Assembly: GCA_032986305.1 (NCBI GenBank) | Contig: GCA_032986305.1_3672.1 | Reading direction: 5' to 3' (one strand) | Source of the DNA: a phage | DNA: 64,000 bases | Part shown: piece after piece, positions 2,539 to 28,214 of the stretch | How the letters are laid out: each line of letters starts with the position of its first letter | Numbering within the stretch: the first letter of the stretch is position 1 | Translations under genes and position numbers: made by a program | The notes under the pieces: model-generated | Told to the model about the DNA's origin: nothing | Database searches by the model: none | What the model saw: the letters and a program-made list of their open reading frames with translations, nothing else

Positions 2539-3252
2539 ATGCTGAATACTAAACTGATCGACAACCTGGAAAAACTGTCTCAGCCTGAAAACTACCTTTG
2601 GTCTGCCAACTGGGTGGAAAACTGGAACCGTGTGGCAGCTAAGGTGAAAAAATCATACACACCATTCGAATTACAGCTTAGCTTCATTGAGGAAGAGTTC
2701 AATGAAGTTTTGGAAGAGCTGGAGAAAGGTGATGGTGGAGATCACTTGCTAAAAGAGGCCTGCGATCTTCATGTTGTCACAAGTTATGCCGCTTATCTTG
2801 TTAATGACAATCACGAAAAGTGGTCAAACCTGTTTGATAATCCACGAGGTATTAAGTTCAAGATTGGTGAGTTCTATGATACACTGATCGCTGCGAAAAA
2901 CACCTCTAAGCAAAGAGCGTCTGCTTACCGCTTAGCAGAGTTGTCAACAGCTTTGCTGTTCCAGCTTCGCGGAGATGTGTGCGGGATGATGCGTAAGGTT
3001 CTCAAATCGAATGACAGCAAGTTTGCACGGGTCAACCATCTACGGTATTCACACGGTGCCAGTGCAGATATGCCTGCTGAACAACTCATCGAGTTGGAGA
3101 TTAAAGATCTTGAGCGACGCTTTGATGGTCGATATGAAGGTTTTGTTGCTAAGGAAGAATTCTACAACGGTAATAAAGTTATCATATTCCTTGACAGTAA
3201 AGGTAAGATCATGAAGCCTTCAAGCTTCAAGGATGTAACAGGGTATATTTAA
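2539..3252 (+). CDS. MazG-like nucleotide pyrophosphohydrolase (putative)
   Basis: EEEFNEVLEELEKGDGGDHLLKEACDL resembles MazG E-x2-E ... E-x2-D motif. Confidence 0.5.
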   Translation: MLNTKLIDNLEKLSQPENYLWSANWVENWNRVAAKVKKSYTPFELQLSFIEEEFNEVLEELEKGDGGDHLLKEACDLHVVTSYAAYLVNDNHEKWSNLFDNPRGIKFKIGEFYDTLIAAKNTSKQRASAYRLAELSTALLFQLRGDVCGMMRKVLKSNDSKFARVNHLRYSHGASADMPAEQLIELEIKDLERRFDGRYEGFVAKEEFYNGNKVIIFLDSKGKIMKPSSFKDVTGYI

Positions 3253-3258
3253 CAACAT

Positions 3259-3285
3259 AGCCGGGATCACCCGGCTTTACTTGTT
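3259..3285 (+). terminator. intrinsic terminator
   Basis: AGCCGGG-atca-CCCGGCT hairpin followed by T-rich tail. Confidence 0.5.
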
Positions 3286-3624
3286 GTGGAAAGTATGCAA
3301 GTGAGGCAGATAGTTATGTACAAGCACTCTAGAGATCTTGAAAACGATGCTGTGTTTGGGGATCAGATGAAAGAGTTGGTTAAACTCATAGGCAGGATAG
3401 AGGATAAGTTTGACACTAAGATCTACATCGACAGCAAAGTATTCAACCACAAAATATGGACAAATCTGTGTGTTGGACTACATGGAGATAAAGATGTTGT
3501 AAATTTAGTTGTAATTAAGTTCATAGTGTGGCAGAATAAGACTATACGTTATTCCGATCCACACTTACTTGTTTATCCTATAAAAGACCTACTACAGAAA
3601 GAGGACTGCAATGCCGTTATTTAA
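3286..3624 (+). CDS. hypothetical protein
   Basis: 112 aa ORF, co-oriented. Confidence 0.4.
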   Translation: MESMQVRQIVMYKHSRDLENDAVFGDQMKELVKLIGRIEDKFDTKIYIDSKVFNHKIWTNLCVGLHGDKDVVNLVVIKFIVWQNKTIRYSDPHLLVYPIKDLLQKEDCNAVI

Positions 3625-3880
3625 TCTTGCTAAACCTGTAGAAGCCCACCAGTTTGACGGAAGCTCTTCATCAGTATCTGATCTGCAACGGTGGATTGAT
3701 ACAGGTGTGTTTACATCGTCACCTGTTCGGACCAGAGATCTTCGTCGCATGTGTGAGCTTGTCGAGCCTTTTGGTAACCTTGTCTTGTACCAAGGAGATT
3801 GGCTAGTTGACTTTATGGGAGACTGGTTGGTAATGAGTAAAGAAGAGATGTTTAAAATTTTTAAGGAAGAGGCCGAGTAA
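3611..3880 (+). CDS. hypothetical protein
   Basis: 89 aa ORF; stop overlaps ligase start (TAATG). Confidence 0.4.
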   Translation: MPLFNLAKPVEAHQFDGSSSSVSDLQRWIDTGVFTSSPVRTRDLRRMCELVEPFGNLVLYQGDWLVDFMGDWLVMSKEEMFKIFKEEAE

Positions 3881-5163
3881 TGCATCAAATCAAAACAACA
3901 CTGTACGCACTGAACAAAGATGGCAGCTACCAACAGTGGAAAGTATTCACTGATGGCGAAAAGGTTATCGTAGAGTTTGGCAAGCTTGACGGTAAATTGC
4001 AGTACAAAGAGACGGTATGCACACCTAAGAACGTAGGTCGTGCCAATGAGACTACAGCTGAGCAACAGGCCGAGCTTGAGGCTATCAGCAAGTGGGAAAA
4101 ACAAGTCCGTCTGGGGTATGTTGAAAACATGGAAGATTGCGAGCAGGGTGTTGATCTTTTACCCATGCTGGTGCATGACTACCTGAAGCGTGGCAAGGCA
4201 CTTAAACTACCTTGCTGGATCTTGCGTAAGTTAGATGGCCTTCGTCTGCTTGTTGTTTTCCAAAATGGTGAGCCTAAATTTATTTCCCGTGGTAATAAGT
4301 CCTACCCTATTCAAGGAAAGCTTTTAGAGCAACTTCGTTCTTTCCATTCTACCACTGGGATTAAACAACTTGATGGGGAACTATACATTCATGGTCTTCC
4401 TTTGCAGAAAATAGTGTCTCTTGCTAAACGGTGGCGAACACAGGAAGAGATTCAGGCCGAGATCGATAAAGACTATGAGGCAGATAAAAAACGCCGTCAT
4501 ACCGCAATTAAGGCAGGCTTATCAACATACAAAAACTTCAACAAGGTAGATATTCCTGTCGATGTTGAGCCTGTTCGTGATGATTTGCGTTACGGTGGGT
4601 ACTGTAGCTACGATCTTGAGTATCACATTTTTGATATTCCTAGCGACAAGGTGTGGTGGGATCCAGAAACAGAGTCTGGACGCTGCAAGGATCTTATGGA
4701 TGCAGAGGATACCGTTACCACTCTGATGCTTGACCATATCAAGGTTGTTGACGCAGAGCTTGCGTACACAGTTGATCATTGCGAAGAATCTGTTGGTATA
4801 TTCATGTCCGAAGGATATGAAGGTACTATCATGCGTAATTTCTGCGGTAAATATGAGTATGGTCAGAGAACATCTGAAGCATTGAAATGGAAAAAGTTCA
4901 ACGACGCAGAGGTGAAAGTTATTGACGTTGAGAAAGATAAGAATGATGAAGGTGTTCTTATCTGTGTTGACAAGGAAGGTGTTGTTGTTAAAATGAAGAT
5001 GAAAGGCACGCACGAGGAGCGTAGCTATGACAGGATGCAGGAAATGATCGGCAAGTTTGTCACCTTCAAATATCAAGCAAGGACAGAAGACAACAACTAC
5101 CAATTCCCTGTCGGTATCTGCGTCCGAAATGTTAACCCAGACACTTGGGAGGTGCTGGAATAA
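3880..5163 (+). CDS. ATP-dependent DNA ligase
   Basis: 427 aa; nucleotidyltransferase motif I KLDGLR; EGTIMRN motif; resembles recalled T7 gp1.3 layout. Confidence 0.7.
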   Translation: MHQIKTTLYALNKDGSYQQWKVFTDGEKVIVEFGKLDGKLQYKETVCTPKNVGRANETTAEQQAELEAISKWEKQVRLGYVENMEDCEQGVDLLPMLVHDYLKRGKALKLPCWILRKLDGLRLLVVFQNGEPKFISRGNKSYPIQGKLLEQLRSFHSTTGIKQLDGELYIHGLPLQKIVSLAKRWRTQEEIQAEIDKDYEADKKRRHTAIKAGLSTYKNFNKVDIPVDVEPVRDDLRYGGYCSYDLEYHIFDIPSDKVWWDPETESGRCKDLMDAEDTVTTLMLDHIKVVDAELAYTVDHCEESVGIFMSEGYEGTIMRNFCGKYEYGQRTSEALKWKKFNDAEVKVIDVEKDKNDEGVLICVDKEGVVVKMKMKGTHEERSYDRMQEMIGKFVTFKYQARTEDNNYQFPVGICVRNVNPDTWEVLE

Positions 5164-5316: not shown

Positions 5317-5787
5317 ATGAAACTTGATAAAAATGTTCAACGAAAAGCTTTCTTGGATATGATCGCATATTCGGAAGGCACAGATAATGGTAGACAACCA
5401 ACTAAGGATCGGGGATACGATGTCATAGTTGGTGGCAAGCTGTTTAGCGATTACAGCAAGCATCCAGGTGTGTACGTTAAGCTAAATGCTAAACTTACCT
5501 CCTCCGCTGCTGGGCGTTACCAGGTTTTGGAGAAGTTTGCTAAACACTACATGGAACAGTTAGGATTGCCAGATTTTGGCCCTGCCAGTCAGGACAAGAT
5601 TGCGTTGCAACTGATCCGTGAGTGCAAGGCTCTCTCCGACATTGACGAAGGGCGTATCCACGAGGCTATCCATAAATGCCGTTCCCGCTGGGCTTCGTTA
5701 CCTGGTGCTGGATATGGTCAGCATGAACAGAAGATCGAGAAGTTGATCGAGGTGTTTAAAAAGGCAGGCGGTGTTGTCCTTGATTGA
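5317..5787 (+). CDS. endolysin, lambda R-type lytic transglycosylase
   Basis: QRKAFLDMIAYSEGTDNGRQ...GYDVIVGG...RWASLPGAGYGQ closely matches recalled lambda R. Confidence 0.85.
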   Translation: MKLDKNVQRKAFLDMIAYSEGTDNGRQPTKDRGYDVIVGGKLFSDYSKHPGVYVKLNAKLTSSAAGRYQVLEKFAKHYMEQLGLPDFGPASQDKIALQLIRECKALSDIDEGRIHEAIHKCRSRWASLPGAGYGQHEQKIEKLIEVFKKAGGVVLD

Positions 5788-5850
5788 TCATTGACATAAC
5801 CACACGGACGTGGTATTGTTACCTCATAAAATGTTTAGCAGGGTTTAACC

Positions 5851-6057
5851 ATGAAAGATTTTCTGTTGGCAATTTTGTTCATGGCAGCATGTCTGGCCTG
5901 TGGTGTCGTGTTTGCAGGTGAAACAGCGTATCTTGTCGATGTATATCGGGACAATGGTAAACGTATTTGCCTTTATGAGACAAGTCAAGGTGAGCTCTAC
6001 GAGCTTGTGAAACAAGGCGAGGCTGGATCTTGTCCTCGCACCCATTTCTTTGAATGA
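5851..6057 (+). CDS. small secreted or lipoprotein (possible spanin-like)
   Basis: 68 aa; hydrophobic N-terminus with lipobox-like LAC; immediately downstream of endolysin. Confidence 0.4.
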   Translation: MKDFLLAILFMAACLACGVVFAGETAYLVDVYRDNGKRICLYETSQGELYELVKQGEAGSCPRTHFFE

Positions 6058-6066
6058 GGAGAATAC

Positions 6067-6531
6067 GTGGAAGACGGACGTTTAATGAAGTCTGAACGCA
6101 GGCTTATTGTGCAACTGATCCCAGAAACAGCTTGGTATAATAACCTCCGAAACGCTGTGAAGAAGAGTGAGTGGGATAAGATCCGTAAGAAGTGCTACAG
6201 AGAAGCCAACTACACTTGTGAGGTGTGCGGAGGCAAAGGCAGCAAACACCCTGTGGAGTGTCATGAACTTTACACTTTCGAAGAGGGAGTGATCCGGCTT
6301 GTCGGACTGATAGCGTTGTGCCCGGATTGTCACACATCGGTGCATCCTGGGTTAGCAAATATCCGTGGGAAGTATGCTCAGGCAGTTAGTCAGTTAGCTA
6401 AGGTGAATAAGATCACCAAGGGTATGGCGGAGGCCTATTACCGAGACTGCTTTGCAGAGTGGCGTGAGCTTAGTAAAGTTCCAGAATGGAAGACTGACTT
6501 TTCGTGGATAGAGGGTTACCTTGATGGCTAA
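6067..6531 (+). CDS. HNH-like nuclease domain protein (putative)
   Basis: CEVCGG...H...CPDCH metal-finger pattern; GTG start at 6067 or ATG at 6085. Confidence 0.4.
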   Translation: MEDGRLMKSERRLIVQLIPETAWYNNLRNAVKKSEWDKIRKKCYREANYTCEVCGGKGSKHPVECHELYTFEEGVIRLVGLIALCPDCHTSVHPGLANIRGKYAQAVSQLAKVNKITKGMAEAYYRDCFAEWRELSKVPEWKTDFSWIEGYLDG

Positions 6532-19118: not shown

Positions 19119-19397
19119 ATGAGCTGTGAAAAATCTTTTTTCTTTATTATTTACGGTAAAGATAACTGCCCACATTGTGTAAGAGCAAAAGAATTTGCAG
19201 TCAGTAAAGGTCTGCCTTTTGTATATAAGACACTTGGCGAGGGTTACACAAAAGAAGAGCTTATTGAGAAGTGCAGTCCAATCGTACCCAGAACGTTGCC
19301 GCAGATCTTCTTAGAAAGCAATCTTGAAAGTGCCCATATAGGCGGTGCCGACGATTTCATCTCTTTTGTTAAGAATGGTTTTGGAGAGAAAAAGTGA
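19119..19397 (+). CDS. glutaredoxin/NrdH-like redoxin
   Basis: 92 aa; CPHC redox motif; between nrdB and nrdD. Confidence 0.7.
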   Translation: MSCEKSFFFIIYGKDNCPHCVRAKEFAVSKGLPFVYKTLGEGYTKEELIEKCSPIVPRTLPQIFLESNLESAHIGGADDFISFVKNGFGEKK

Positions 19398-20254
19398 AAG
19401 TTGTAAAACGGGACGGTAGAGAAGAGGTCTATAACGGAATTAAGGTGATCAAGGCGGCAGAGTCCGCCTTACTTGAGTCTGGACATACTGAAGAAGAAGC
19501 TTACCGGATCGCCTGCGCGGTTAATGAAGTTGTTGCTAACAATCTACCAACCGACCAGTGCACGATCTCTGTAAAAAATATCCATATCCTTGTTGAAGAC
19601 GCTCTTATGGATATGGGTTTAAAATGTGCAGCCAGAGAATACATCCAGTATAGGCAGACAAGAGATAATAACAGAGAGGCAGGTGGAAAACTGCTTGCAG
19701 ATATTAGTGGCTTCTTGGATCGCACTTGTGATGAATTTACAAAAGAAAACGCAAATAAGCCTACCAATCATGTACACACTCATCGTGACCTGCTTGCAGG
19801 CATCCTTAGCAAACACCTTGCATCAACACAGATCCTGCCAGACCGTGTCTCAGAAGAGCACAATAAAGGCTTCATCCATGTGCATGATCTTGACTACTTG
19901 ATCAGTCCGTTAACAAACTGTTGTTTGGTAAATTATCCAGATATGTTGGAAAACGGATTCAACATTGGTAACGCCCATGTCAGTAAGCCGAAGTCAATAG
20001 GGGTTGCAACAACAATCCTTAGCCAAATTTCTAGTGCAGTAGCTAGTGCTCAGTATGGGGGTCAGACTATGAGCCATATTGATCATTATCTGGCACAGTA
20101 TGCTGAGGCGACCTATGAGAAGAATCTTAAATTTTGCCAGGAACACTGGTTGCCAGATGCTGAGACTGTTGCAATGCAAATGACAGATAAAGACGTATTT
20201 GACAGCATGCAGACTTTGCTCTATCAAATCAATACGTTAACCTCTGTCAACGGT
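19394..20254 (+). CDS. nrdD: anaerobic ribonucleotide reductase NrdD, exon 1
   Basis: GFIHVHDLDY...TNCCLV...GNAHVSKPKSIGVATT matches recalled T4 NrdD; ends ...NTLTSVNG then in-frame stop. Confidence 0.8.
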
Positions 20255-20511
20255 TAACAAACTGGCCGTTTTAAAACTCTGCTAACCTCAGTATGAGGGG
20301 TCAGCTGATCGCTGGCTAACGGGGAACGCTAAGGCGAAAGCTATGCCAATCCCGTGACTAGCTTCACAAGGAGTGAGGCGGTTGTAACGACTAACCTTTT
20401 GGTGTAGGGATTATGGAAGATTCCGAAACGCAGAGGTCTGATTAAGAATCACACGGTGTGATTTCAGGCAAGAGATAGTCTGGCCTTGTGGAAACATAAG
20501 GGTGGGGACCG
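20255..20511 (+). mobile_element. group I-type intron 1 in nrdD (ORF-less, 257 nt)
   Basis: Interrupts NrdD between SVNG and QTPF; upstream exon ends in U, intron ends in G. Confidence 0.6.
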
Positions 20512-20811
20512 CAAACCCCTTTTATCACATTAAGTTTAGGTCTGGACACCTCAGTATTTGGTAGAATGATTACCAAAAACTACTTGAAAGTCCACAAAAT
20601 GGGTCTTGGTGAAGAATGTATCACACCTGTGTTCCCTAAAGTGCTGTTCTTCCTAGAAGAGGGTGTCAACATGAACCCTGGAGATCCTAACTATGATTTG
20701 AAACGTTTAGCTCTGGAATGCTCTGCAGAGCGGATTTATCCTGACTTTGTTTCTGTTCCACTAAATCGTAAAGTGACAGGCTCGACAGATGGCAAAGTAA
20801 CGAGCATGGGT
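20512..20811 (+). CDS. nrdD: NrdD exon 2
   Basis: QTPFITLSLG...ITPVFPKVLFFLEEGVN...DPNYDLKRLALEC continues the T4 NrdD alignment. Confidence 0.7.
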
Positions 20812-21573
20812 AAACTATAACTGCTCATGTAAAATCTATCTAAACGGGGAAACTCCAGAACGGACAATCCCGTGCTAAACGTAACAGAACTCCTGACCAA
20901 GAGGAGTCCTGAAATGAGAAAACAAATTCGTGATTTTGAAGGTTATGAAATTGACGAGATGGGCAATGTTTATTGCACCCGCTACGAAAATGAAAGAATT
21001 ATTCATTCGTGGGAAGAGATAAACACAGGTTACCGTCTTGTTAGGATACGCAAGAACAAAAAGACTGTTTGCCTAAGGGTTCACAGACTTGTTGCTGAAG
21101 CGTTCTTACCAAATCCAGACAATTTACCCTATGTTAAGCACAAAGGGGACAACAGGAAAGATAACAGTGTATACAACCTTGAGTGGGGAGCTTGCCCAGA
21201 CAATACGCAAGAAGGATACAACAACAACTGTTATGCTTTTTACACAAGATGCCACGGTGTGAAAGCCACCAACAAATTAACTGGTGAGGTTTTCCACTTT
21301 AAAAGTCTGAGATGTTGTGCTGATGTTTTAGGAGTGGATAGAAAAAGAATATCTGCTATCCTGAAACGTGGTGCGCCTAATAACTATGATTACGAGTTCT
21401 GTTACGAAATGCCTAACGACTAACCGTGATGAATGTAGCGGTGTAGGGTGTAAGCCGATGACACTCGAAATGGTAGACACACTAAGTGTGAAGATATAGT
21501 CTGATCTGCATGGGAACATGCAGCAGCACGTAAAGGTGCGGGGGTGGACTTGCGAACCACCCTGAACATAATG
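20812..21573 (+). mobile_element. group I-type intron 2 in nrdD carrying HNH endonuclease ORF (762 nt)
   Basis: Exon 2 ends ...TSMG (last nt U); exon 3 resumes CRSFLS; intron ends in G. Confidence 0.6.
20914..21423 (+). CDS. HNH homing endonuclease (intron-encoded)
   Basis: RBS AGGAG 7 nt before ATG; VHRLVAEAFLPNP...HKGDNRKDNSVYNLEW typical of phage HNH endonucleases. Confidence 0.7.
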   Translation: MRKQIRDFEGYEIDEMGNVYCTRYENERIIHSWEEINTGYRLVRIRKNKKTVCLRVHRLVAEAFLPNPDNLPYVKHKGDNRKDNSVYNLEWGACPDNTQEGYNNNCYAFYTRCHGVKATNKLTGEVFHFKSLRCCADVLGVDRKRISAILKRGAPNNYDYEFCYEMPND

Positions 21574-22536
21574 TGTAGAAGTTTCTTATCGAAATATAGC
21601 GACCCTGTAACAGGCGAGGAGAAATACCTTGGCAGATTTAACTTAGGCGTTGTTAGCCTTAACCTGCCAATGATTGCGGCAAAAGCCAAGACGGAAGGTG
21701 TTGATTTCTTTGCAGTTCTTGACGAATACTTGGATCTTGCATACGAGGCTCACCTTGTAAGGGTTAATCGTCTAAAAGGAACAAAGGCAGGGCAGAACCC
21801 CATCATGTGGTGTGAAGGCGCTCTTGCTCGCCTGGATCCTGAAGAGAGTGTTGATAAACTCTTCTATGACGGGTACGCTTCCATCAGTATTGGGTATATT
21901 GGTGTGTATGAAACCTGTCAGATTTTGGGTAGAGAGGGTGACAAGGCTTTAGCTCTTGGAATCCTTCAGCACATGAGAGATGCTTGTGAGCGATACAAGA
22001 AGGAAAGTAGACTAGCGTTTAGCTTGTACGGCACTCCTTCTGAGAGTCTATGCTATAAAGCTGCAACCTGTCTGGATCGTGAATATCCGGAAGTGTTGAA
22101 GCACGAGCATGAATATCTCACCAACAGTTTCCATCAGCCAGTATGGATAAATAGCTCTCCTTTTGATAAGTGGGAGTATGAGGAAGGTTTTGCTATGATC
22201 TCCTCTGGTGGCAACATCGGATACGTAGAAACACCTAACCTGAAAAACAACCTGGATGCTTTAGAGGCTCTTGTTGACTTCGGGTATAAACATATTATGT
22301 ACTTCGGTATAAACCAGCCTGTTGACCAATGCTTCAAGTGCGGTTTCCAGGGAGAATTTAAAGCCTCTCCAAGAGGTTTTATATGCCCTTGTTGTGGAAA
22401 CCATGAGGAGGGAACGATCAGTGTAATTAGACGTGTGTCTGGATACCTTTCCAGTCCTAACTCCCGTCCTTACAATAAAGGTAAGCAAGCGGAAGTTATA
22501 GAACGGGTTAAGCACTATGGAAGTTGTAGTTGCTGA
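21574..22536 (+). CDS. nrdD: NrdD exon 3 (glycyl-radical domain)
   Basis: C-terminal Zn site CPCCG and glycyl radical motif RRVSGYL. Confidence 0.8.
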   Translation, partial: CRSFLSKYSDPVTGEEKYLGRFNLGVVSLNLPMIAAKAKTEGVDFFAVLDEYLDLAYEAHLVRVNRLKGTKAGQNPIMWCEGALARLDPEESVDKLFYDGYASISIGYIGVYETCQILGREGDKALALGILQHMRDACERYKKESRLAFSLYGTPSESLCYKAATCLDREYPEVLKHEHEYLTNSFHQPVWINSSPFDKWEYEEGFAMISSGGNIGYVETPNLKNNLDALEALVDFGYKHIMYFGINQPVDQCFKCGFQGEFKASPRGFICPCCGNHEEGTISVIRRVSGYLSSPNSRPYNKGKQAEVIERVKHYGSCSC

Positions 22537-22602
22537 TACTTGACAGAAGCCACAAGGATGTGGCATACTTGGCTAATCTATGAGAACCAAGAGGGATCAA
22601 AG

Positions 22603-23559
22603 ATGCCTAGAGGAAAACAACTTACAACTGAAGAATTTACAAAAAGAGCTAGAGAAGTACATGGCGATAAATATGACTATTCAAAAACCGTATATAAAAC
22701 TGCTAAAAGTAAGGTTGTAATTGTATGCCCTGTTCATGGTGAGTTTACGCAGATCGCTGGACATCATATCCTTGACGGTAGTGGGTGTCCTAAGTGTGGT
22801 AGAGTGCCAGTAGGCAATAAGCTTAGAAACGATTCTAGTGATATTATCAAAAAATTTGTAAAAATCCACGGTGACACCTATGATTATTCTAAGGTTGAAT
22901 ATGTTAACTATAAAACTCCTGTAAAAATTGTATGCCCTGAGCACGGAGTGTTCTTGCAATCCCCATCTAACCATTTGAAAGGCCAAGGGTGCCCTGAGTG
23001 TAGTAAACTCATTAGCGCAGCAAAAAGGAATAAAGGCCCTGAATTCATAGAAAGAGCCAAAGAAATCCATGGCGATAAATATGACTACTCTTTTGTAGAT
23101 TATATGACTTGCGAAGATAAGGTAGAGATAATCTGCAACACTTGTGGAAATCACTTCACCCAGACACCTTCTTGCCACCTGTCTGGTCGTGGATGCCCTA
23201 AATGTGCCAAAAACGGTTTCTTATCTCACAACTATGGGAAGCTTTACCTCATGGTTGATAACTTAGAAGCGCCAACACTTATGAAGATTGGTGTGAGCGT
23301 CAATGTAGAAGCGAGGAAGGGAAGGATATTAAGAGCATCCAAGAAGGCTGGTGCAGGTATTTATGATCTCCACATAGTAAAAACATGGGGCGGATCGACT
23401 GAAAACATGCTGAGTGTAGAAAAATCTGTGCATGAAGCCTTCAATAAGTATAAAATAAACTTCTCTAAAGTATTTAGTGGAAGCACTGAATTCTTTCACT
23501 ACAGACCTGAAGTGTTTAGCATAGTGGAAGCAGTATACAAAGAGATCTGTGGTAAATGA
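22603..23559 (+). CDS. T5orf172/GIY-YIG-like protein with three tandem Zn-binding modules (free-standing homing endonuclease candidate)
   Basis: Three repeats of HGDxYDYS...C..HG.F.Q....HL.G.GCP.C, then KLYLMVDN...KIGVS...R core. Confidence 0.55.
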   Translation: MPRGKQLTTEEFTKRAREVHGDKYDYSKTVYKTAKSKVVIVCPVHGEFTQIAGHHILDGSGCPKCGRVPVGNKLRNDSSDIIKKFVKIHGDTYDYSKVEYVNYKTPVKIVCPEHGVFLQSPSNHLKGQGCPECSKLISAAKRNKGPEFIERAKEIHGDKYDYSFVDYMTCEDKVEIICNTCGNHFTQTPSCHLSGRGCPKCAKNGFLSHNYGKLYLMVDNLEAPTLMKIGVSVNVEARKGRILRASKKAGAGIYDLHIVKTWGGSTENMLSVEKSVHEAFNKYKINFSKVFSGSTEFFHYRPEVFSIVEAVYKEICGK

Positions 23560-24201: not shown

Positions 24202-24231
24202 TTGACAAAGCTTTGTTAAGTTGGTTATAAT
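24202..24231 (+). promoter_or_regulatory. sigma70-like promoter
   Basis: TTGACA - 17/18 nt - TATAAT. Confidence 0.45.
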
Positions 24232-24721: not shown

Positions 24722-24759
24722 AAGTGCTTGGTACATCTCAATCTGAAAGGAGTCCCAAC

Positions 24760-25548
24760 ATGGGTCGAGCTAAAGAAACAAAACGCATGCGTGATGAAGC
24801 TAGAGAGGCTCGCAAATCTGATCGCCTGCGTAAGGCTGCTGAGAAATTTGCTGACGAACGAGAGCACACCGCTCCAGCTCTCCGACCAATGAATAAGAAG
24901 CAGCAAAAGTATCTTGATTATCTAGGGTCACGTAAGATTATTATTGTAAACGGTGTGTTTGGATCCGGTAAGACATTCATGGCATCTGCATATGCAGGTG
25001 ATCTTCTGCGTAAGAACGAGATTGATAAGATCATTGTTGCACGTCCTTATGTACAGACCGGAAAATCAAGCGGATACAAACCGGGAACGTCAATGCAGAA
25101 GCTTTGGCCTTACCTTCGTAGTATGATGGACACTATTTGTCGTCGTGTTGGCAAAGGTGCTTTTGCCGCAATGCTAGGAGACGGTCAGAACAGCCGTATC
25201 GAGATTTGTGAAGTTGAAAGCATTCGTGGTCGTAGTTTCGATGAGCGATGCTTTGTCCTGATTGACGAGGCACAGCAAACTAACCCTGAAGAAATGTTGT
25301 CAATTATCACAAGGATCTCTGATCAGGCAACCCTTGTAATTATGGGCGATAATAGCCAACGTGACATCCCTGGTAAATCTGGCCTTGCATGGGTGACGGA
25401 TTTCTTTACTCGTCATCCAGATCCTGAGGTTGGAATGATCAGCTTTGATAGTCCAGACGATGTCGTTCGTTCCGGGTTGGGTCGTCAGATTGCACTCAAT
25501 CTTATTGAGGATCGTGCAAATCATATTTGGACCCCTGTTTCCGAGTAA
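24760..25548 (+). CDS. phoH: PhoH-like ATPase
   Basis: GVFGSGKT Walker A, LIDEAQ Walker B; start set at ATG after RBS AAAGGAG. Confidence 0.85.
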   Translation: MGRAKETKRMRDEAREARKSDRLRKAAEKFADEREHTAPALRPMNKKQQKYLDYLGSRKIIIVNGVFGSGKTFMASAYAGDLLRKNEIDKIIVARPYVQTGKSSGYKPGTSMQKLWPYLRSMMDTICRRVGKGAFAAMLGDGQNSRIEICEVESIRGRSFDERCFVLIDEAQQTNPEEMLSIITRISDQATLVIMGDNSQRDIPGKSGLAWVTDFFTRHPDPEVGMISFDSPDDVVRSGLGRQIALNLIEDRANHIWTPVSE

Positions 25549-25592
25549 TACAGAAGGGTGGTTATTCCACCCTTAAATATCTAAAACAGTTG

Positions 25593-25621
25593 TTGACAAA
25601 TAGGCAAGCTTTAGATATTAT
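25593..25621 (+). promoter_or_regulatory. sigma70-like promoter
   Basis: TTGACA - 17 nt - TATTAT. Confidence 0.4.
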
Positions 25622-25649
25622 TATCGGACAAAACAAGGAGGAGGACAGT

Positions 25650-25961
25650 ATGGCTACAATACAAGAGAAACTGAATAAAATATACTGCCTGTTTGTCTAT
25701 AACGGCGAGACAATTTTGGCAAATAAAGGATCCAAGAATGTGTGGATCAAGGACAGTGGTGGTAATATAATCAACTTAGCGTTGCTACGTGAGCGCCGAC
25801 ACAGATTCTTTATCGAGTCTCGGATTATTGAAAGCAGCACCTGCTACAGAACAGGCGATAAAGTAATTGTTGACAATGATACGTGGTATGTGGTAGACTG
25901 GCAATCATTGAGTTGTGATGCTTCTGACAATCGTAAGTATTCCATAGTGATTGCTAAATAA
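25650..25961 (+). CDS. hypothetical protein
   Basis: ATG after RBS AAGGAGGAGG. Confidence 0.45.
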   Translation: MATIQEKLNKIYCLFVYNGETILANKGSKNVWIKDSGGNIINLALLRERRHRFFIESRIIESSTCYRTGDKVIVDNDTWYVVDWQSLSCDASDNRKYSIVIAK

Positions 25962-26021
25962 AGGTAAATGTGAATCAGGTTTAAATAAATAGCTTTCAAC
26001 TTCCAATATTAAGGATTTCTC

Positions 26022-27071
26022 ATGAATTTAACACCTCGCAGCACCATGGTACACGGCATGAAAGAAAAACAGAACGGTTTCGAACCTATGAGTAATAAAA
26101 TGTTTGGTATGCCGGGCGGTATCATGGAAACATACAGCTACCCAACACCTGTTGTTGACCACGTTCTTTATATCGACGATTTGGAAGACCTACAGGATCA
26201 TATGTCTCGTCTGCAGACGATCCGTATGGCTCAGCCGGAAGAAAGCATTCGGGTAATCATCAATAGCCCTGGGGGTTGCGTGCACATTGCAATGGCTTAT
26301 CTGCAGGCATTCCGCGAGTCTCAGGCAAGCGTTGTTGCACATGCTGAAGGGATGTGCTGCTCTGCTGGAACAATCCTATGGCTGGGTTGCAAAGAACGCA
26401 CCGTGGCTCCGGACACAGAGTTTATGTTCCACTACTATCAAGGCGGCACTTATGGTAACGGTGTGAACATGAATACTCAGGTCAGCTACTGGAAAAAACG
26501 TTTCGAACGCCTGATCGAAAAATACTACGGTGGGGTGCTTACAGAAGATGAGATCGCATCCATCACAGCTGGTGGCGAAGTGTGGTTGGACGGAGAAGAG
26601 CTGGCAGCACGCACTGGAGCTATTATTCTGGATGAAGGCAACATACAACGCATCCAGAACGGACAAAAACCGAAAAAGCTTCTGGCAAAAGGTGATGAAG
26701 AAGGCGTGTTAGGTGAAGCAGGTCTTCCGGAGATTCACCAGTGCACATCTTTAGATGAGTTAGTTCATGCTGTTGAATCTGCAAAAGCGGGTGGTTCGAA
26801 AGGTGATGTTCACACTGTGTTCCTGAATCTGCAGATGGAGAGTGGCGAGACCGTCAGAATTGCCCTGGGTGAGATTACTTCAGAAGATCTGCAGAGATTC
26901 TCTGTCGTTGAACTTCAGGATATTCTGTCTCAATTGAAGACTACTCTGAACGGCGGTGAAGAGGTTAAGGTGAAAGATAAGACTCGCAAGCGTCTGGTGG
27001 ACAATATTATTAAAACAGCAAAAGAGCTCAATGAAAAAATCCTGGGTGCAGGAATTGTCGAAGAAGCTTAA
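26022..27071 (+). CDS. ClpP-like serine peptidase with C-terminal extension
   Basis: INSPGG, GMCCSAGT (Ser), MFHYYQ (His) in ClpP order; about 150 aa extra acidic tail. Confidence 0.6.
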   Translation: MNLTPRSTMVHGMKEKQNGFEPMSNKMFGMPGGIMETYSYPTPVVDHVLYIDDLEDLQDHMSRLQTIRMAQPEESIRVIINSPGGCVHIAMAYLQAFRESQASVVAHAEGMCCSAGTILWLGCKERTVAPDTEFMFHYYQGGTYGNGVNMNTQVSYWKKRFERLIEKYYGGVLTEDEIASITAGGEVWLDGEELAARTGAIILDEGNIQRIQNGQKPKKLLAKGDEEGVLGEAGLPEIHQCTSLDELVHAVESAKAGGSKGDVHTVFLNLQMESGETVRIALGEITSEDLQRFSVVELQDILSQLKTTLNGGEEVKVKDKTRKRLVDNIIKTAKELNEKILGAGIVEEA

Positions 27072-27083
27072 ACATTAATTCTA

Positions 27084-27108
27084 AAGCCCTCTTCGGAGGG
27101 CTTTTATG
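27084..27108 (+). terminator. intrinsic terminator
   Basis: AAGCCCTC-ttcg-GAGGGCTT then TTAT. Confidence 0.5.
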
Positions 27109-27122
27109 ATCTGGAGATTTGC

Positions 27123-27656
27123 ATGACTTGTGCTAGAAAACCTGATGAACAACGTAACGCCTACGATGAGTATGTGACACCGGAGTGGTGTGCAGAAGGG
27201 CTGTATGACCTTATTCCGTTCCCAGAAGACTGGACCTACTTAGAGCCTTGCAGGAATAGTGCCTCAGGTGTGTTCTACTCCCGTATGCCGTTAGGATCTG
27301 CATGGGGAGAAATCCAAGAAGGTGTTGACTATCTGAATACAGAATACAACCATGTTGACTGTATTATCACCAACCCACCATACAGCCTGGCTCGTGAGTT
27401 TGTAGACAAGGCGTTGAAAGATGCTGACGTAGTTATTATGCTTTTGCGTCTTAATTTTCTGGAAAGCAAAACCAGATTCGAATGGTGGCTTGATAATGCA
27501 CCTACCACTGTGATCACAATATCTAAGCGCCCGTCATTCCAATCCAATGGTAGAACGGATGGGCAGGCATATGCATATTTTGTATGGGACAAGAAAAACC
27601 GTCTAGACTTGCCGCCATTTATGTGGTTGGCACCACCAGAGGCAGACTTGAAATGA
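27123..27656 (+). CDS. DNA N6-adenine methyltransferase, small phage Dam-like (putative)
   Basis: YVTPEW and IITNPPYS motifs. Confidence 0.55.
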   Translation: MTCARKPDEQRNAYDEYVTPEWCAEGLYDLIPFPEDWTYLEPCRNSASGVFYSRMPLGSAWGEIQEGVDYLNTEYNHVDCIITNPPYSLAREFVDKALKDADVVIMLLRLNFLESKTRFEWWLDNAPTTVITISKRPSFQSNGRTDGQAYAYFVWDKKNRLDLPPFMWLAPPEADLK

Positions 27657-27937
27657 AAATGAGTGCTAAGGACAAGTTGCACCAGTTAGCGCTAAAACGT
27701 CCTGTAACGCTCCCTGACGAGCTTAACTCCATTTATGATGCGATTGTAGGGGAGATACAAAATAAAGCGTTAGCAGGCTTTCTGGGATGCGGATTTTCGA
27801 TAAATCTACCCTCACATCTCTCAGATTACTTCCCACACATTGTTGGGGATTTGAGGGCAGGAGGTCTGCAGGTGGATGTTGTTGGCATCTCTCCGGAGAA
27901 AAATAACACAGTTGCCTACTTGACAGTGACCTGGTAG
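27653..27937 (+). CDS. hypothetical protein
   Basis: ATGA overlap with MTase stop. Confidence 0.4.
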   Translation: MKMSAKDKLHQLALKRPVTLPDELNSIYDAIVGEIQNKALAGFLGCGFSINLPSHLSDYFPHIVGDLRAGGLQVDVVGISPEKNNTVAYLTVTW

Positions 27938-27974
27938 TAGTGTATTTTGTTTTCAACAAGAGGGGGGGTCATCC

Positions 27975-28214
27975 ATGTATAAGTCATTTTCAATTTACTC
28001 AAGACAGGCAAAACACTACACAGAGATTCTGATCACTCAGAAAAAATCTGTAGAAGGTGAGTGGGAATATCATCATAAAATGTTGCGTCCAGACTGGGTT
28101 TTTGATAGACTTATTGCTATGATCCCTCTTGGAGAAGTATACCCTATGACAGGCCATAGGGATGCTTGGGATTTAATTGACTATATAGATTCATTTAAGG
28201 AGCCCAGTGTATGA
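27975..28214 (+). CDS. hypothetical protein
   Basis: 79 aa ORF. Confidence 0.4.
   Translation: MYKSFSIYSRQAKHYTEILITQKKSVEGEWEYHHKMLRPDWVFDRLIAMIPLGEVYPMTGHRDAWDLIDYIDSFKEPSV

Follow-up and report, generated by a model that had tools for sequence, protein, structure and literature searches.

A ClpP-like peptidase gene in an rV5-like phage

The DNA analysed here (the window) is a stretch of 64,000 nucleotides from a phage (GenBank assembly GCA_032986305.1, contig GCA_032986305.1_3672.1). This report concerns one of its genes, which encodes a ClpP-like peptidase and which a sequence-only reading of the window had picked out as a possible regulatory protease rather than a prohead protease. The open reading frame (ORF) lies exactly where that reading had placed it, starts with ATG and is preceded, 7 nt upstream, by the Shine-Dalgarno sequence AAGGA. 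The nucleotide-metabolism surroundings that had been described were also found, with the exons of NrdD, NrdG and a PhoH gene upstream and a DNA methyltransferase gene downstream. The gene, the segments of its product and the neighbouring elements are listed in Table 1.

Table 1. Positions of the peptidase gene, its protein segments and the adjacent elements in the window
Feature	Position	Strand	Evidence or remark
ClpP-like peptidase gene	26022-27071	+	349 aa plus stop; rV5 gp122, JES2013 ORF114
N-terminal segment (residues 1-44)	26022-26153	+	low confidence in the monomer model; conserved motifs
ClpP-fold protease domain (residues 45-215)	26154-26666	+	Pfam, alignments, AF2, Foldseek
Catalytic codons	Ser114, 26361-26363; His137, 26430-26432; Glu186 (Asp171 position), 26577-26579	+	alignments
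Variable linker (residues 216-264)	26667-26813	+	poor conservation, partial disorder, predicted helix 244-257
Conserved lineage-specific C-terminal module (residues 265-345)	26814-27056	+	alignments, AF2
PhoH-like P-loop ATPase gene	24724-25548	+	Pfam PhoH, 7.4e-47; phrog_170, 1.3e-75
Sigma-70-type promoter-like site, TTGACA-N17-TATTAT	25593-25621	+	11/12 consensus positions; prediction
Small ORF, 103 aa, phrog_5456	25650-25961	+	strong GGAGG ribosome-binding site; predicted co-transcription with the protease gene
Intrinsic-terminator-like hairpin, AGCCCUCUUCGGAGGGCU then UUUAU	27083-27108	+	directly after the stop codon; published rV5 t122

The window is part of the genome of an rV5-like myovirus (Vequintavirus). 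Positions 25000-28000 matched 122 phage records with 90-99% identity, and the top DNA matches were 'Campylobacter phage D1' (98.6%) and Escherichia phage JES2013 (97.4%). Because the peptidase is 100% identical to ORF114 of JES2013, named 'ATP-dependent protease', and is the counterpart of rV5 gp122, which appeared in 2013 as a 'ClpP (ATP-dependent) protease subunit' of 349 aa, the gene is already known at the level of annotation; more than 100 rV5-like genomes carry it as an annotated gene, and a PHROG family of its own exists for it. The rV5 and JES2013 proteins and the 'ClpP-like protease' of the BASEL collection (PHROG 5410) are the same protein, with 96-100% identity. In rV5 and JES2013 the gene has the neighbours that it has in the window (PhoH, the small ORF and the methyltransferase), its predicted promoter and terminator agree as well, and no material difference was seen. 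As a discovery the finding is thus ordinary, and what is added here is modest, namely corrected annotations and the linkage to PhoH. The full-text literature yielded annotations of the ClpP-like peptidase only, and no functional study.

In profile searches, phrog_5410 matched the protein over its full length (E = 4.9e-155; residues 24-345 against profile positions 4-322 of 323), and phrog_1827 matched its protease domain (E = 2.6e-40). This full-length match and the position of the gene in an early/middle block, typically downstream of PhoH, are the features of the non-structural phage ClpP-like peptidases of PHROG 5410 / 1827.

About 20 unannotated 'Campylobacter phage' records (MG0656xx), which give C. 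jejuni as the host, share 94-98.6% identity with E. coli rV5-like phages in this region, and one of them is the best match of the window. The attribution of these records to C. jejuni looks doubtful.

Fold and active site of the protease domain

Homology search with hidden Markov models (HMMs) and structure prediction, both proposed in the sequence-only reading, were carried out, and they agreed on ClpP. The Pfam CLP_protease family matched significantly (E = 2.1e-12, 47.7 bits against a cut-off of 20.2), and the closest PDB entries by sequence were ClpPs (E = 7.5e-8). An AlphaFold2 (AF2) model of the monomer, built from 40 homologues, showed the ClpP alpha/beta fold with its handle region, with a predicted local distance difference test score (pLDDT) of about 90 across residues 45-215. 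When this model was searched with Foldseek, the top 50 matches were all ClpP, and the template modelling (TM) scores to the targets were 0.54-0.72 (0.62-0.72 for the leading matches). The domain shares with cellular ClpP (E. coli ClpP, MEROPS S14, TIGR00493) the overall fold, the NSPGG oxyanion region, the spacing between the nucleophile Ser and the general-base His, and a Gly-rich handle followed by a long helix. In contrast, the identity to cellular ClpP is about 20%, far under the curated cut-offs, and the protein has a different N-terminus of 44 residues and an added linker and C-terminal module of about 135 residues.

The sequence-only reading had stated that the ClpP catalytic residues are present in order, which was borne out for two of the three. 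Ser114, in CCSAG, and His137, in MFHYY, align to Ser97 and His122 of E. coli ClpP and are invariant in the 40 homologues and also in seven distant lineages; the NSPGG motif is invariant in the 40 homologues, and its GG persists across the seven lineages. The catalytic Asp of cellular ClpP, however, is not conserved in the family. The position of E. coli Asp171 is occupied by Glu186 here, by Gln in most of the close homologues, and by E, D or Q over the seven lineages. The variability of this third position, together with the remodelled ATPase-docking positions described below, could be taken as the mark of a catalytically inactive ClpP-fold protein, serving as a scaffold, a decoy or an inhibitor, for example of the host Clp system. 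Because Ser114, His137 and the oxyanion-region motif are all invariant, catalysis has probably been retained, and we consider an inactive protein very improbable.

The N-terminal segment and the C-terminal extension

The extra length noted in the sequence-only reading is real, and amounts to about 44 residues at the N-terminus and about 135-150 at the C-terminus. The description of the extension as acidic fits less well. Residues 201-349 have an isoelectric point of 5.06, as compared with 4.82 for the protease domain, and with a net charge of -7 and 17% D+E against 13% K+R they are only mildly acidic.

The N-terminal segment keeps the motifs N25, F28-G29, P31-G32 and Y40-P41. In the linker, the pLDDT falls below 50 at residues 222-239 and 258-262. 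The C-terminal module is predicted to consist of a beta-hairpin, a short helix and two long helices, with a pLDDT of 80-93 in its core, and F293, E297 and R322 are invariant in the alignments. The module matched no Pfam family and no related fold in the structure searches. A search of its profile against 1.84 billion representative proteins returned members of the peptidase family, truncated gene calls and one spurious leucine-rich-repeat protein, and no relatives outside the family.

The protease domain is homologous to that of ICP1 gp211, with which it shares 36% identity over 145 residues. The short PHROG 1827 proteins of Pakpunavirus, Flaumdravirus, Otagovirus and Barbavirus are, like gp211 and the peptidase described here, encoded in a non-structural location, usually beside PhoH, and ICP1 and Barbavirus have a separate capsid protease elsewhere in the genome. 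The extension is not shared in this way. By hhalign, similarity between the C-terminal module and the tails of ICP1 gp211 (158 residues) and of the Vibrio phage F99 protein was undetectable, and the short forms (182-245 aa) have no tail at all. Certrevirus CR9 probably has the module in common with the rV5-like phages (E = 5.8e-5, probability 66%). Because the ICP1 and F99 tails are dissimilar, the short members tailless and CR9 a probable sharer, the extension is, as judged from these alignments, a lineage-specific addition to a phage peptidase core that is itself widespread.

The peptidase gene is separate from the head module

The proposal that this is not a prohead protease was examined in 12 annotated phage lineages: rV5-like, Certrevirus, ICP1, Pakpunavirus, Flaumdravirus, a Klebsiella phage, Barbavirus, a T4-like Vibrio phage, Otagovirus, KLEP7, the N4-like Nahantvirus and Vibrio F99 (the loci from IMG/VR considered below were examined for PhoH). 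The reading had named a place beside the portal and capsid genes in relatives as the arrangement that would speak for a standard prohead protease. That arrangement was never seen, and the peptidase gene lies outside the head module in all 12 lineages, so this part of the original idea stands; its other part, a regulatory protease, is a conjecture. In the N4-like Nahantvirus the gene is located three small genes from the terminase, in divergent orientation.

Because the head genes fall outside the window, the head module of JES2013, whose DNA is 97% identical, was used for a closer comparison. In JES2013 this module lies about 32 kb from the peptidase gene, on the opposite strand. The order there is terminase, portal (ORF62, phrog_113), ORF61, ORF60 (326 aa; possibly the scaffold), decoration protein and major capsid protein. 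ORF61 is a Peptidase_S78_2 protein, that is, an XkdF-type phage serine protease (Pfam E = 1.1e-17, 64.6 bits against a cut-off of 24), and it is 40% identical to the 'capsid protease' ORF125 of ICP1. Homologues of it occur in the rV5-like 'Campylobacter phage' records, some of the closest relatives of the window, and other Vequintavirus records name the gene 'prohead protease' or 'prohead core protein protease'. The transcriptome study of ICP1 also predicts gp125 as the capsid protease (PMC7567579), and Barbavirus has a peptidase of its own between the portal and capsid genes (PMC6715854). The peptidase is thus not the sole candidate of its phage for a capsid protease; the role in capsid maturation is filled by a separate XkdF/S78-type enzyme, and the true prohead protease of the rV5-like phages is a different gene from the ClpP-like one.

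In RefSeq, the records of JES2013, FFH2, Murica, CR8 and ESCO13 give the ORF61 gene (5646-6218 on the minus strand of the JES2013 record, our locus L002, outside the window) the mistaken label 'DNA methyltransferase'. The wrong name appears to derive from the label of phrog_1530.

The ClpP-related head-maturation proteases (NF045542; PHROGs 94, 133 and 1684) resemble the peptidase in being phage-encoded proteins of the ClpP fold, often with C-terminal extensions, and they work without Clp ATPases. Their genes, however, directly follow the terminase or portal gene and precede the capsid gene or are fused to it, which is never the case for the peptidase gene. Two distant ClpP-like loci taken from viral contigs served as positive controls. 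One (L061) has the order terminase, portal and a 672-aa protease-capsid fusion, the other (L034) gave its best score with a head-maturation PHROG, and both score far better with the head-maturation PHROGs than with PHROG 5410. The peptidase behaves in the opposite way, with E = 8.7e-22 or weaker for the head-maturation PHROGs against the value given above for phrog_5410, and it reaches 60.4 bits with NF045542, for which the cut-off is 120.

A second morphogenetic protease whose gene lies apart from the head module and which acts, for example, on internal or ejection proteins or on the scaffold, with its tail as a device for targeting to proheads, would account for a profile similarity that is closer to the head-maturation proteases than to cellular ClpP, with phrog_1684 aligning across residues 70-256, and for the extension itself, since C-terminal targeting tails are typical of prohead proteases. 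We regard this as quite unlikely, given the canonical S78/XkdF protease in the head module, the low NF045542 score, the conserved non-structural location with a predicted host-type promoter, and the place of the ICP1 gene within a middle-expressed block. In addition, none of six gp122 tryptic peptides searched for was present in the mass-spectrometry table of rV5 virions.

Docking of Clp ATPases and the label 'ATP-dependent'

The docking positions were compared in an alignment to ClpP whose register is anchored by NSPGG, Ser and His. The pocket of E. coli ClpP that receives the IGF/LGF loops of ClpX and ClpA, which we take to be formed by Y60, Y62, F82, I90, M92, F112 and L114, is occupied in the peptidase by R77, I79, E99, H107, E109, T127 and A129, respectively. 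Five of these seven (R77, E99, H107, E109 and T127) are invariant polar or charged residues in the family, and at the F82 position all seven lineages compared have a polar residue. On this list of residues, the hydrophobic docking pocket of cellular ClpP is lost. Consistent with this, the score with the clpP equivalog model TIGR00493 was 33.2 bits against a cut-off of 308.6, and the remaining ClpP models of NCBIfam were also far below theirs. No Clp-type unfoldase was found among the annotated ATPases of the phage, which comprise a DnaB-like helicase, a kinase-like protein and a sub-threshold AAA_14 match. Because the pocket is polar, the ClpP-model scores are low and no phage unfoldase was found, canonical docking of the host Clp ATPases appears unlikely. 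The public labels 'ATP-dependent' and 'ClpP subunit' are inferences from the Pfam match, and since the docking pocket is not conserved, the name 'ATP-dependent Clp protease subunit' is probably misleading.

If the protein nevertheless docked the host ClpX or ClpA, either by itself or in mixed complexes with host ClpP, it would redirect ATP-dependent proteolysis of the cell. The ClpP fold, including the Gly-rich handle and the long helix E, the cellular ClpPs as the top structural matches, and the conserved N-terminal motifs, which could form axial loops, would suit such a subunit. The polar pocket and the failure of all ClpP models do not, and neither do the lack of a conserved acid at the Asp171 position and an N-terminus and C-terminal module unlike those of ClpP. 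We therefore judge incorporation into the host Clp system to be improbable.

Association of the peptidase gene with PhoH

A PhoH gene is found upstream of the peptidase gene on the same strand, 0-3 genes away, in nine of 13 phage lineages: the window (Vequintavirus), Certrevirus CR9, ICP1, KIL3b, PPSC2, Barba14A, KLEP7, Vibrio F99 and Alteromonas phage V22. The genera represented are Vequintavirus, Certrevirus, Flaumdravirus, Otagovirus and Barbavirus. The PhoH neighbours were re-checked with HMMs, and the arrangement in V22 is published (PMC7289586). In KIL3b and PPSC2 the annotated PhoH and peptidase ORFs overlap by 8 bp. The flanking genes vary between lineages and the pair stays together. 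Among 79 loci from IMG/VR, PhoH was located 0.5-2.0 kb upstream in 18 of the 19 strong members of the family and in none of the 60 distant ClpP-like loci; the strong loci are not mutually independent, because most of them are Vequintavirinae-like. In five phages (Pakpunavirus EPA1, Klebsiella K7_rec24, a T4-like Vibrio phage, an N4-like phage and Av-05) the peptidase was found without PhoH in the inspected flanks. A description of the PhoH-peptidase adjacency was not found in the literature.

The pairing was seen at our loci L004, L006, L007, L009, L011, L012, L014 and L015-L033, and spans 24724-27071 in the window. In relatives, the PhoH gene is annotated with a start about 36 nt further in. 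In the record of Pseudomonas phage PPSC2 (L011, NC_073678.1), the product names at 2869-4639 are shifted by one gene, so that PhoH, an ORF of 253 aa (HMM E = 1.4e-65), carries the name 'Clp protease', and the real ClpP-like gene (orf161) appears as a 'hypothetical protein'.

The persistence of the pair despite different flanks, the overlapping ORFs and the loss of the canonical Clp-ATPase pocket could be explained if PhoH and the ClpP-fold peptidase belonged together, in large virulent phages, as a conserved functional module of two genes. PhoH would then supply an energy-dependent or targeting step, either by forming or feeding a degradation machine together with the peptidase, or by regulating or loading it. 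We hold this idea to be unlikely. Shared ancestry of a nucleotide-metabolism block, possibly common to these lineages, is a sufficient alternative explanation of the adjacency, which can be inherited synteny; in the window phage a promoter and another ORF stand between the two genes, and in five phages the neighbour is missing from the flanks inspected, as noted above. PhoH-family proteins, moreover, are linked to RNA and not to protein unfolding, as in the NCBIfam name 'RNA 5'-3' helicase PhoH2'. If it were true, the module would give phage PhoH its first mechanistic role. To our knowledge, phage phoH is a widespread environmental marker gene without a known function, and a conserved partner gene is for this reason a concrete and testable lead. 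ICP1, which has the same arrangement and good genetics, offers a practical test system.

Expression signals and proposed function

The promoter-like site upstream of the small ORF corresponds to P121, a published promoter prediction for rV5 (Kropinski 2013 Table S4). The hairpin behind the peptidase gene, which is GC-rich and followed by a T-tract, folds at -14.7 kcal/mol (z = -2.8). The nucleotide-metabolism genes of ICP1 that reach their maximum at 12 min, ahead of the late structural genes, are located in its gp176-gp211 block (PMC7567579). The predicted promoter and terminator and the timing of the ICP1 block together suggest early/middle expression by the host RNA polymerase.

The small ORF of 103 aa has no Pfam match. 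It was considered as a conserved partner of the peptidase and rejected, as no significant counterpart was found upstream of the protease in the other lineages. A link of the peptidase to defence or anti-defence was also considered, and PADLOC gave no match.

Taking these results together, we favour, with a probability of roughly 60%, a non-structural, phage-specific Ser-His peptidase of the ClpP fold that belongs to the rV5-like phages (PHROG 5410, related to PHROG 1827). It would be produced from the early/middle nucleotide-metabolism block, where the promoter, the 103-aa ORF, the peptidase gene and the terminator would form a small transcription unit of their own directly downstream of PhoH. 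The ClpP-like core would most likely assemble into a ring-shaped peptidase acting through Ser114 and His137, with Glu186 as an optional third catalytic residue. Because the hydrophobic pocket is replaced by invariant polar residues, the enzyme probably works without docking the host unfoldases ClpX and ClpA, and may be independent of an ATPase. The C-terminal module, held on a flexible linker, would serve as a domain for recognition of substrates or partners or as an assembly domain, and particular host or phage proteins might be degraded or processed in this way during the takeover or replication phase.

Several points weigh against this reading. The best profile matches outside the families of the peptidase itself are ClpP-related head-maturation proteases (NF045542, E = 2e-16; phrog_1684, E = 8.7e-22), and the C-terminal extension resembles the targeting or scaffold tails of such enzymes, so that a morphogenetic role as a second protease may exist. 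The missing virion peptides are weak evidence here, because prohead proteases often leave the capsid. ClpX or ClpA may dock in a non-canonical mode. As for expression, the whole scan gave 13 promoter sites against 10.1 +/- 3.2 in shuffled sequence, and the statement on timing in ICP1 covers the gene range and not gp211 specifically.

Other features of the window

A perfect sigma-70 consensus (TTGACA-N18-TATAAT, 12/12 positions) is located at 24202-24231 on the plus strand, upstream of the 116-aa ORF located before PhoH. Among the published rV5 promoters, P118 is its counterpart.

The gene for the anaerobic ribonucleotide reductase, nrdD, is broken up into three coding pieces (19394-20257, 20566-20820 and 21544-22536). 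The interruptions are two group-I-intron-like matches, at 20245-20501 and 21418-21523 (Rfam RF00028, E = 2.4e-4 and 3.6e-6, respectively; neither reaches the gathering score), and an HNH/NUMOD-like ORF at 20872-21423. The gene is whole in JES2013; phages JEP1 and 241Ecol014PP have it split in a similar way. Between nrdD and nrdG there is a free-standing ORF of 339 aa (22540-23559, plus strand), which is absent at this place in JES2013. With its DUF723/zinc-finger repeats, a T5orf172/MUG113 (GIY-YIG-like) domain and a sub-threshold CapR-homology match, it probably encodes a homing endonuclease.

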